A stretch of 64,000 nt of DNA. Origin: an uncultured Chloroflexia bacterium. Its GTDB lineage: Bacteria > Chloroflexota > Limnocylindria > Limnocylindrales > CSP1-4. Within the stretch, counting starts at the first letter, position 1; every line of letters begins with the position of its first letter. The notes below the pieces were generated by a model that saw only the letters and a list, made by a program, of their open reading frames with translations, did not search any database and was not told the DNA's origin. This document shows positions 21,227-21,688 of the stretch, piece by piece. The position numbers were made by a program, and so were the translations under genes. The DNA lies in NCBI GenBank assembly GCA_963766655.1, contig CAVYBB010000002.1, positions 938,170 to 1,002,169 of the forward strand. The letters are read 5' to 3'.

Positions 21227-21688
21227 ATGAACTACGAGCTGTACATGGGCGAGGCCCTCGCCGAAGCGCGAAATGCGCTCGCGTCGGGCGAGCGCCCGAT
21301 CGCGGTCGTGGCCGTCGTCGACGAGGCGATGGTCGCCCGGGCACACGACCGCGTGCGCGAGTCGAACGACCCGACCGCCCATGCCGTCGTGGTCGCGATC
21401 CGGGAGGCGGCCAGGAAGCTCGGCAAGGACCGGCTCGCGAGCGCCACGATCTTCGCGACGCTCGAGCCGTGCGCGATGTGCATCGGCGCCCTTCTCGAAA
21501 GCGACGTCGAGACGCTTGTCTATGCCGTCCCGAACACCGAGGGCGGCGCAGCGGGAACGGTCATCCAGCTCGCCCAGCACCCCGACCTGAGACGACGGCT
21601 CAAGATCGTCAGCGGCATCCGGCGCGAGGAGGCGGAGGAGCTGTTCGCAACCGCGGCCAGCGCCGCGGCCAGCGCCGCCGCCCGCTAG
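21227..21688 (+). CDS. tadA: TadA-like deaminase-fold protein with catalytic Glu replaced by Val
   Basis: NDPTAHAV, TLEPCAMC, GGAAGT; sits in tadA-tRNA-Ser-SRP-dnaX-ybaB-recR synteny. Confidence 0.85.
   Translation: MNYELYMGEALAEARNALASGERPIAVVAVVDEAMVARAHDRVRESNDPTAHAVVVAIREAARKLGKDRLASATIFATLEPCAMCIGALLESDVETLVYAVPNTEGGAAGTVIQLAQHPDLRRRLKIVSGIRREEAEELFATAASAAASAAAR

Follow-up and report, generated by a model that had tools for sequence, protein, structure and literature searches.

A TadA-derived putative pseudo-deaminase retained in Limnocylindria that decode CGN codons without inosine

To our knowledge, TadA and tRNA-Arg(ICG), the arginine tRNA with inosine at wobble position 34 (I34), are near-universal and usually essential in bacterial decoding, the known exceptions being the reduced Mollicutes, in which the gene was lost. 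The accessible part of the study by Diwan and Agashe (2018) places TadA at the bacterial root and reports TilS, which belongs to the other wobble-editing system, in 98.18% of bacteria. In Mollicutes without TadA the CGN codons are decoded by tRNA-Arg(GCG) and/or tRNA-Arg(UCG) instead of tRNA-Arg(ICG), and the accessible text of Yokobori et al. (2013, PMC3711424) proposes that a weakening of TadA preceded its loss; a partly accessible report (PMC10454642) describes yaaJ (tadA) of Bacillus subtilis as dispensable. Tad3 is listed as a family member without the catalytic Glu in the accessible part of Iyer et al. (2011), where an inactive bacterial TadA goes unmentioned. Our literature search, which had most subscription journals outside its coverage, returned no account of a catalytically dead bacterial TadA or of decoding in Limnocylindria. 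Here we describe a gene for a TadA-derived putative pseudo-deaminase of 153 amino acids (aa) in a 64,000-nucleotide (nt) stretch of DNA, hereafter the window, from an uncultured Chloroflexia bacterium of the order Limnocylindrales (GenBank assembly GCA_963766655.1, contig CAVYBB010000002.1, positions 938,170 to 1,002,169). The gene spans positions 21227-21688 of the window on the forward strand, and it encodes His-Ala-Val (HAV) where TadA has His-Ala-Glu (HAE).

For the comparison we label the window's family f1, the small-genome sister family in the same order f2, a family of another order f4, and two other Limnocylindria groups f3 (a sister family) and f5. We consider it likely that the gene encodes a neofunctionalised, Zn-containing, dimeric pseudo-deaminase with a non-enzymatic role, which arose from the positional tadA in the common ancestor of f1 and f4. 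Unpublished genomes enter the counts for the genus (G010, locus L017) and the class tallies (G102, G122, G126, G130, G139, G145, G156), and two of the 27 ACG loci discussed below come from G102 (L156) and G145 (L166); the conclusions rest on none of the unpublished genomes alone.

Valine at the catalytic position of a tadA orthologue

The coding sequence (CDS) is an intact open reading frame (ORF) with GGAG 4-7 nt upstream of its ATG. Around the catalytic site it reads T50-A51-H52-A53-V54, in which the codons CAT (21380-21382), GCC (21383-21385) and GTC (21386-21388) form the HAV motif (21380-21388), that is, the Zn-ligand His and, at the site of the catalytic Glu, Val. Both Cys ligands lie in P81-C82-A83-M84-C85 (21467-21481). 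The translation therefore agrees with the preliminary description of the window, which had read from the DNA alone an intact gene with three Zn ligands and a Glu-to-Val change at GTC 21386-21388. All three ligands (H52, C82, C85) are invariant across the clade of HAV orthologues, and E80, P81, C82, M84 and C85 do not vary in 65 HAV proteins (of 61 canonical TadAs, all have E80, P81, C82 and C85, and 58 have M84). In the cytidine deaminase (CDA) superfamily, loss of the proton-shuttle Glu of the HxE motif abolishes deamination, and because of this role of the residue the HAV protein would be expected to lack deaminase activity.

Among the CDA-superfamily models of Pfam, MafB19-deam is matched at 90.5 bits and dCMP_cyt_deam_1 at 75.4 bits; against the TadA equivalog NF008113 of NCBIfam the protein scores 111.2 bits, under the cut-off of 150. 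By sequence the closest solved structures are bacterial TadAs (7cph, 100 bits; 2b3j, 92 bits), with ADAT3 at 56 bits. An AlphaFold2 (AF2) model, built from a 90-row alignment, has the TadA fold with the helix-4 division and the two C-terminal helices (predicted local distance difference test, pLDDT, 98; Foldseek template-modelling score, TM, 0.94; root-mean-square deviation 0.9-1.1 A to 2b3j and 1wwr). Thus, the protein has the Zn ligands, the fold, and the position and descent of a TadA, and is without the HAE Glu, a score above the equivalog cut-off, the contact residues and an accompanying tRNA-Arg(ACG).

Within the genus, 20 of the 24 other genomes carry an orthologue (74-92% identity), and the motif is HAV in 21/21 loci, the window's included. 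A class-wide search (150 genomes and the window's own, E<=1e-5) matched the gene in 39 of 44 f1 genomes at 53-78% identity and in 48 of 50 f4 genomes at 51-59%, as well as in 42 of 49 f3 genomes at 36-45% and in the single f5 genome. Read in the fetched loci, the motif was HAV in 27/27 from f1 (L029-L055), in 10/10 from f4 and in seven of eight further f1 loci, the eighth having HAI (L081); all nine fetched f3 loci and the sole f5 locus have HAE, with the usual GxGxN, D-x-K-x-G and FFxxxR elements. From the 66 loci of the HAV clade 65 CDS were extracted, and Val is found in every one (21 from the genus, 34 from other f1 genera, 10 from f4), the remaining orthologue having Ile. The residue is written with two codons: GTC occurs 16 times in the genus, 20 times in the other f1 genera and 4 times in f4, and GTG occurs 5, 14 and 6 times, respectively.

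By pairwise NG86, the ratio of non-synonymous to synonymous substitution rates (dN/dS) has its median at 0.153 over 210 pairs of the genus, with a maximum of 0.336, and at 0.277 in both f1 (561 pairs) and f4 (45 pairs), values that are rough because a dS of 0.6-0.9 at 70% G+C may be saturated; such saturation would push them too high, not too low. The frame is undisrupted in all 65 HAV CDS. The gene is under purifying selection, and its conservation excludes decay. Hence the alignment of orthologues that had been proposed as a check came out with HAV in the relatives and no neutral decay, and the earlier view that a TadA fold was kept without its catalytic Glu gains from both results. We regard a neutral relic or an assembly artefact, that is, a dying gene or a base-call error, as an exceedingly improbable explanation. 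The loss of the gene in f2 and its apparent absence from two f3 genomes (G044 and G089, see below) would suit a relic, but Val recurs in 65 independent assemblies with two synonymous codons, the window's GTC is two substitutions away from GAA/GAG (the reason for which a base-call error had been judged unlikely beforehand), frames are intact at dN/dS of 0.15-0.28, and identity drops only to about 51% over two orders, with new invariant residues having arisen.

In a careful maximum-likelihood (ML) tree of 85 rows, the HAV and HAI rows (n=37) fall on one side of a branch with support 97/94, the bootstrap being not fully settled and its values rough; f4 forms a clade inside the HAV clade (99/98), and f3 with f5 a separate clade among canonical TadAs (100/99). 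The HAE tadA of f3 occupies the same place as the HAV gene, 5' of tRNA-Ser(CGA), tRNA-Ser(GGA), dnaX, ybaB and recR. From this shared place and the tree it follows that tadA has its positional orthologue in the HAV gene, and that the change happened a single time, ahead of the divergence of f1 and f4.

Beyond the class, the best 150 matches in 1.84 billion representative proteins comprise 36 with a full HAV motif, 89 with HAE, three with another motif and 22, mostly fragments, without the full motif; among these matches every full-motif protein at about 50% identity or above is HAV. The closest orthologues in public records come from metagenome-assembled genomes (MAGs) labelled Chloroflexota, Candidatus Limnocylindria or Limnocylindrales, so that the preliminary description had guessed the class correctly. 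The HAV gene was also seen on short contigs filed as Methylomirabilota, Verrucomicrobiia, Eisenbacteria and Sulfomarinibacteraceae MAGs (L180, L186, L232, L245), placements that are probably binning errors, because these copies share 69-91% identity with the gene of Limnocylindria.

Two distant representative proteins also lack the Glu, namely P0065 (HAV, 42% identity) and P0069 (HPI, 41%), both on long branches amid canonical TadAs in the ML tree, and they may be further or independent cases of its loss. P0065 shares traits of the HAV clade (the FF tail is missing and LPHQ stands instead of LNH); no close relative was found for it in 300 genomes of the phylum and the window's own, its top matches being f4 and f1 HAV proteins at 41-49%. 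A third protein, P0046 (HAE), lies next to the HAV clade in a quick tree and was rejected as an intermediate, as its alignment is confined to the C-terminal half (residues 66-146, 63% identity); we take it as a chimeric or frame-shifted gene call.

The neighbourhood of the gene lies on the same strand. Directly 3' of it stands tRNA-Ser(CGA) (21769-21854), then tRNA-Ser(GGA) (21948-22035), both called by ARAGORN and Rfam, and a large bacterial signal recognition particle (SRP) RNA (22257-22520; RF01854, 185.3 bits), followed by dnaX (22482-24326, with homologues at the same position in f3 and f4 loci), ybaB (24397-24699) and recR (24703-25320), the latter two placed by the ORF list and locus comparison. 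Because the listed GTG start of dnaX falls within the SRP RNA, the gene probably starts further 3'. This order, together with the f3 synteny, bears out the assignment of the gene to the tadA position of Bacillus type. Straight after recR comes an rRNA operon (within 25946-30000) with 16S at 25946-27446, tRNA-Ile(GAU), tRNA-Ala(UGC) and 23S from 28273.

Decoding of CGN codons without inosine

The window's genome (3.85 Mb in 5 contigs, 70% G+C) has 53 tRNAs by ARAGORN, with the Arg anticodons TCT, CCT, GCG, CCG and TCG; at 83.75% completeness, tRNA-Arg(ACG) is neither among these nor among the 47 Rfam tRNAs. The sole call with an adenosine at position 34 (A34), an ARAGORN 'tRNA-Pro(AGG)' (G000:C3:587350-587429, G000 being the window's genome), was rejected: the anticodon lies at position 40, tRNA-like arms are missing and the 47 Rfam matches do not include it. 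The genome-wide tRNA check that had been called for thus leaves no ACG and no confirmed A34 tRNA. CGN is read by tRNA-Arg GCG, UCG and CCG, and A34-to-I34 editing is therefore without a substrate.

The G34 decoder that stands in place of tRNA-Arg(ACG/ICG) is encoded at 15880-15955 (forward strand; ARAGORN, Rfam 71.6 bits), next to tRNA-Ser(GCU) (15777-15868, forward strand; ARAGORN), its constant neighbour in the fetched loci. Its anticodon was given correctly in the preliminary description, which had placed it beside the deaminase-like gene; it lies 5.3 kb upstream and is not adjacent. The distance between the tRNA pair and the HAV gene is shorter in several f4 genomes (0.6-1.3 kb in G179, G107, G083, G072, G168 and G101), and in f3 the ACG tRNA is found 13-65 kb from tadA on the same contig.

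Orthologues of the window's tRNA-Arg(GCG) (88-100% identity) occur in 44/44 f1, 6/6 f2 and 50/50 f4 genomes, and ARAGORN reads GCG in all 46 fetched loci (the window's own, 28 from f1, six from f2, nine from f4 and two from f3). A pattern for the ACG anticodon loop and T-loop matched 38 of 49 genomes in f3, 2 of 44 in f1, 1 of 6 in f2, 4 of 50 in f4 and 0 of 1 in f5. A true tRNA-Arg(ACG) was present in 27/27 f3 loci examined, mostly adjoining tRNA-Arg(UCG), and in none of the six f1, f2 and f4 matches examined; the remaining f4 match (unpublished G122), outside these six, has nearly the same sequence as a non-tRNA match in G096. HAE is thus paired with ACG and HAV with GCG, and the proposed loss of inosine wobble stands for f1, f2 and f4.

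All GCG tRNAs (from f1, f2, f4 and the f3 genomes G044 and G089; window 15880-15955, loci L126, L263, L264) share one anticodon arm, GG-UUGCGGA-CC, with U32 and G37, while the f3 ACG tRNAs have CUACGRA. The f3 GCG tRNAs share 80-87% with those of f1 and f4, more than the 73-80% found against ACG tRNAs from their own genera, a likeness that could stem from convergent remoulding of the loop or from an old separate gene. One further f3 genome, G137, was set aside as a probable mis-binning; it shows an ACG pattern and, on a contig of 2.3 kb, a GCG tRNA that shares 96% identity with that of the window.

Retention of the gene is not the rule among GCG lineages. In f2, where the GCG tRNA is present, the HAV query matched none of six genomes at E<=1e-5 (another scan gave four weak partial matches among 16 genomes), and the syntenic gap between tRNA-Arg(GCG) and tRNA-Ser(CGA) holds no copy. 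In the f3 genomes G044 (97% complete; L264, G044:C26:56685-59744) and G089 (86%; L263, G089:C21:2629-5700), tRNA-Arg(GCG) adjoins tRNA-Arg(UCG) where relatives have ACG, and TadA was not found, the only matches being weak ones to PF14437 (35-42 bits), which lie in ORFs of 493-658 aa; the two look like independent losses of the I34 system, here with loss of the gene. Once the anticodon has switched, loss is the usual fate of the gene, and its long retention in f1 and f4 is an unusual outcome, which stands out because it was not found in three other GCG lineages (f2, G044, G089).

As to the second wobble-editing system, the window's genome yielded no lysidine synthase TilS (TIGR02432; best match 19.9 bits, cut-off 93.6). 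None was found in f1 (0/44) or f2 (0/6) either, and TilS is present in 45/49 f3, 47/50 f4 and 1/1 f5 genomes. Outside the window, the genome encodes a tRNA-Ile(UAU) (G000:C3:757272-757346; ARAGORN, Rfam 61.5 bits) and only two CAU tRNAs. Throughout the window's order, AUA seems to be read without lysidine, a rarity among bacteria.

The inventory of deaminases and tRNAs bears on the idea, raised in the preliminary description, that the protein is the partner of an active deaminase, that is, the structural subunit of an ADAT2/ADAT3-like heterodimer with an HAE paralogue. The Glu-to-Val change is the one known from eukaryotic ADAT3/Tad3 (accessible part of Iyer et al. 2011), and other HAE deaminases do occur in some f1 and f4 genomes. 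We nevertheless hold this idea to be very unlikely, given that the search for an HAE paralogue in the window's genome returned a single PF00383 and a single PF14437 match, both being the HAV gene itself, and that there is no A34 tRNA to edit. Over 61 f1 genomes (the window's, 83.75% complete, and 60 drawn at a 90% completeness floor) PF00383 matched once in 38, not at all in two and at least twice in 21, and the extra copies that were read resemble guanine-deaminase or other types, not TadA.

One f4 genome, G088, has both an HAV locus (L175, G088:C60, with dnaX, ybaB and recR) and an HAE locus (L176, G088:C56), the latter on a contig of 7.6 kb that is likewise laid out as tadA-tRNA-Ser and bears two tRNA-Ser(CGA) genes. 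It was rejected as an ADAT2/3-like pair, as the HAE copy groups with foreign TadAs; this copy was probably mis-binned or transferred. In the window's genome (83.75% complete) we also detected neither a cytidine or dCMP deaminase nor the deaminase domain of RibD, although there are five RibD_C-type reductase matches.

A remodelled protein and its candidate roles

Residues were compared between 65 HAV proteins and 61 canonical TadAs. Common to both are the Zn ligands, the DPTAH and EPCxMC helices, G87, A88, G107 and G130. The differences go beyond position 54 (Glu in 61/61 canonical proteins, Val in the HAV clade). Asn at position 41 (59/61 canonical) is Asp in 54 of 65 HAV proteins and Glu, Asn, Ala or another residue in the others; Arg93 (58/61) is Asp in 52/65; Asp103 of the D-x-K loop (50/61) is Asn in 41/65, with Asp also present; and position 105, Lys or Arg in 59/61, is variable. 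The canonical Asn122 and His123 are lost, Phe143 and Phe144 (58/61 and 56/61) give way to an Ala-rich sequence, and Arg148 (59/61) is absent. Hence the deviations first noticed in the window's gene alone (RAHD at the Asn, PNTEG at the D-x-K loop) are real and clade-wide (positions 41, 103 and 105). We take the lost positions to be those that grip the anticodon loop in the 2b3j complex. Several of them belong to the TadA signature as given in the accessible part of Iyer et al. (2011).

Other positions have become conserved instead. The N-terminus reads MNYEL, with M1, Y3, E4 and L5 in 65/65 and N2 in 63/65 HAV proteins, and A34, M35, R63, F76, V86, L89, L90, A100, A109, Q114, L115, A116, S129 and R132 are newly conserved at >=90%. 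The clade is acidic, with a median net charge of -6 (range -10 to -2) and an isoelectric point (pI) of 5.2, compared with 0 and 6.9 in canonical TadAs. A homodimer model of the HAV protein scored 0.83 (best control 0.00), with runs agreeing in at least 91% of contacts and a partner pLDDT of at least 91; among proteins of solved structure, 20 of 30 pairs and one of 23 single chains reached the mark, and the pass may only show likeness, because TadA dimers have already been solved. The modelled interface includes the HAV-specific R63, V86, L90, D93 and L115, and a TadA-type homodimer is probably kept.

We reason that in the common ancestor of f1 and f4, which belong to different orders, the positional tadA orthologue would have turned non-catalytic in a lineage that reads CGN by tRNA-Arg GCG, UCG and CCG, where editing would have been left without a substrate. 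The gene would then have escaped decay, keeping the Zn site, the fold and probably the TadA-type homodimer, as it lost the proton-shuttle Glu and the residues for holding the tRNA-Arg anticodon loop, turned acidic and fixed its new set of invariant residues. The new role would most likely be that of a protein-binding or regulatory module and, less likely, that of a nucleic-acid binder of changed specificity, the former being favoured in view of the reversed charge and of the contact residues that have been lost.

The most substantial alternative is a non-catalytic nucleic-acid reader, in which a dead TadA would still bind the anticodon loop of a tRNA (e.g., tRNA-Arg(GCG)), an mRNA or single-stranded DNA (ssDNA) as a chaperone, protector or regulator. 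The intact fold and Zn site would serve such a reader, as would the linkage of the HAV gene to the tRNA-Ser(GCU)-tRNA-Arg(GCG) pair at 0.6-9 kb in f1 and f4, the one anticodon arm common to all GCG tRNAs (GG-UUGCGGA-CC) and the match of V101 and N103 to V106 and N108 in 8e2q, a DNA-binding TadA evolved in the laboratory. We deem it improbable, however, on account of the change of Arg93 to Asp, the loss of Lys105, Asn122, His123, Phe143, Phe144 and Arg148, the uniformly acidic clade (net charge -2 to -10), and the presence of the same GCG tRNA without the HAV gene in f2, G044 and G089. The RNA-binding role that had been suggested for the protein is accordingly split by these data: binding in the manner of TadA is weakened by the replaced contact positions and the acidity, and binding in some other manner stays as a rival explanation. 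As to the substrate loop itself, V101 and N103 (codons 101-103, 21527-21535) align with residues that are mostly Ala and Asp in canonical TadAs, and V106 and N108 of the DNA-acting 8e2q are presumably founding base-editor mutations.

It is highly unlikely that the protein is still an enzyme, a deaminase or other hydrolase with another general base or substrate. In its favour, neither the Zn ligands nor the EPCxMC helix varies, and Asp replaces Asn41 near the pocket in 54/65 proteins; on the other side, the surroundings of the pocket have no invariant acidic residue (position 41 can also be Glu, Asn or Ala, among others), the pocket positions 25, 79 and 101 vary, and Glu loss abolishes deamination according to the established knowledge of the superfamily.

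Returning to the neofunctionalised, non-enzymatic dimer, we stress that a number of points weigh against it. The nature of the new role, as favoured here, is indicated by sequence features only indirectly. The variable pocket-lining positions 25, 79 and 101 argue against a conserved ligand site and give no positive lead to another function. We saw no operon partner that is conserved, the upstream neighbour being different in f1 and f4 (pfk precedes the gene in the window, and the f4 locus examined lacks a homologue of it), and the proximity of the tRNA-Ser(GCU)-tRNA-Arg(GCG) pair, at 0.6-9 kb in both families, may point to some tie with tRNA that has persisted. Expression of the CDS was sought in sequencing runs: of 20 runs listed, 17 were recorded as RNA (each with 8-12% of sampled words), and in the four examined (X1, X4, X8, X5) the contigs span the abundant SRP RNA and both tRNA-Ser genes, with no cover over the CDS in X1 and X5 and a few low-depth pieces (depth 0.9-8) in X4 and X8. 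Furthermore, all genomes compared are MAGs, that of the window is 83.75% complete, and the possible saturation of dS noted above applies to the selection estimates.

The chances are even, in our judgement, that these bacteria hold the first bacterial counterpart of an ADAT3-style exaptation without a catalytic partner. TadA would here have been freed by an A34-to-G34 switch in tRNA-Arg and rebuilt, with reversed charge, a new invariant N-terminus and loop, and the Zn site and dimer kept, for a selectively important non-deaminase function over at least two Limnocylindria orders. The same assessment covers a stepwise dismantling of both near-universal bacterial wobble-editing systems within the class, in which f1, f2 and f4 lost I34, two f3 genomes did so independently, and TilS was not found in f1 and f2, where a tRNA-Ile(UAU) is present. 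A large free-living lineage of soil and freshwater bacteria with high G+C has given up inosine, and the fate of the freed gene differs among sister groups, from loss in some to a conserved, apparently dead enzyme in others. This offers a natural experiment on the origin of pseudoenzymes, a test for a second, non-catalytic function of TadA and a natural TadA scaffold with an altered substrate loop. It also carries a warning for annotation, as homology would label the gene tadA and imply I34 where there is none.

Comparison with known systems

Bacterial TadAs (Escherichia coli 1z3a, Staphylococcus aureus 2b3j, Aquifex aeolicus 1wwr, B. subtilis YaaJ 7cph) are the best sequence relatives of the HAV protein (85-100 bits) and share its fold (TM 0.91-0.94), Zn ligands, genomic position and predicted dimer. 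The HAV protein differs from them in having Val for Glu, in the loss of the N, R, D-x-K, N-H and FFxxxR elements, in its acidity, in its score below the equivalog cut-off and in the missing tRNA-Arg(ACG). As far as the accessible account goes, B. subtilis resembles the present case in that I34 is not strictly essential and the gene order tadA-scr-dnaX is the same, but it has an active enzyme and tRNA-Arg(ACG).

The Mollicutes, as portrayed in the accessible literature, lost the gene in reduced, parasitic genomes, an end state that f2, G044 and G089 resemble. The HAV bacteria, in contrast, are free-living, with genomes of 2-4 Mb and 70% G+C and the full set of GCG, UCG and CCG tRNAs, and keep the presumably dead gene under purifying selection.

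With ADAT3/Tad3 the HAV protein has in common the absence of the HxE Glu with the Zn ligands kept (accessible part of Iyer et al. 2011), and both come from a TadA-like ancestor and are retained under selection. ADAT3 carries an N-terminal tRNA-binding domain (chains 7nz7_B and 7nz9_B, 317 residues) and works only with the active ADAT2, whereas the HAV protein is a single domain of 153 aa without an active paralogue in most genomes and without an A34 substrate. An upstream extension of its ORF is not conserved, and no N-terminal tRNA-binding domain precedes the deaminase domain. The likeness to ADAT3 therefore appears, from the sequences, to be convergent, because the HAV protein scores 56 bits to ADAT3 and 100 bits to bacterial TadA.

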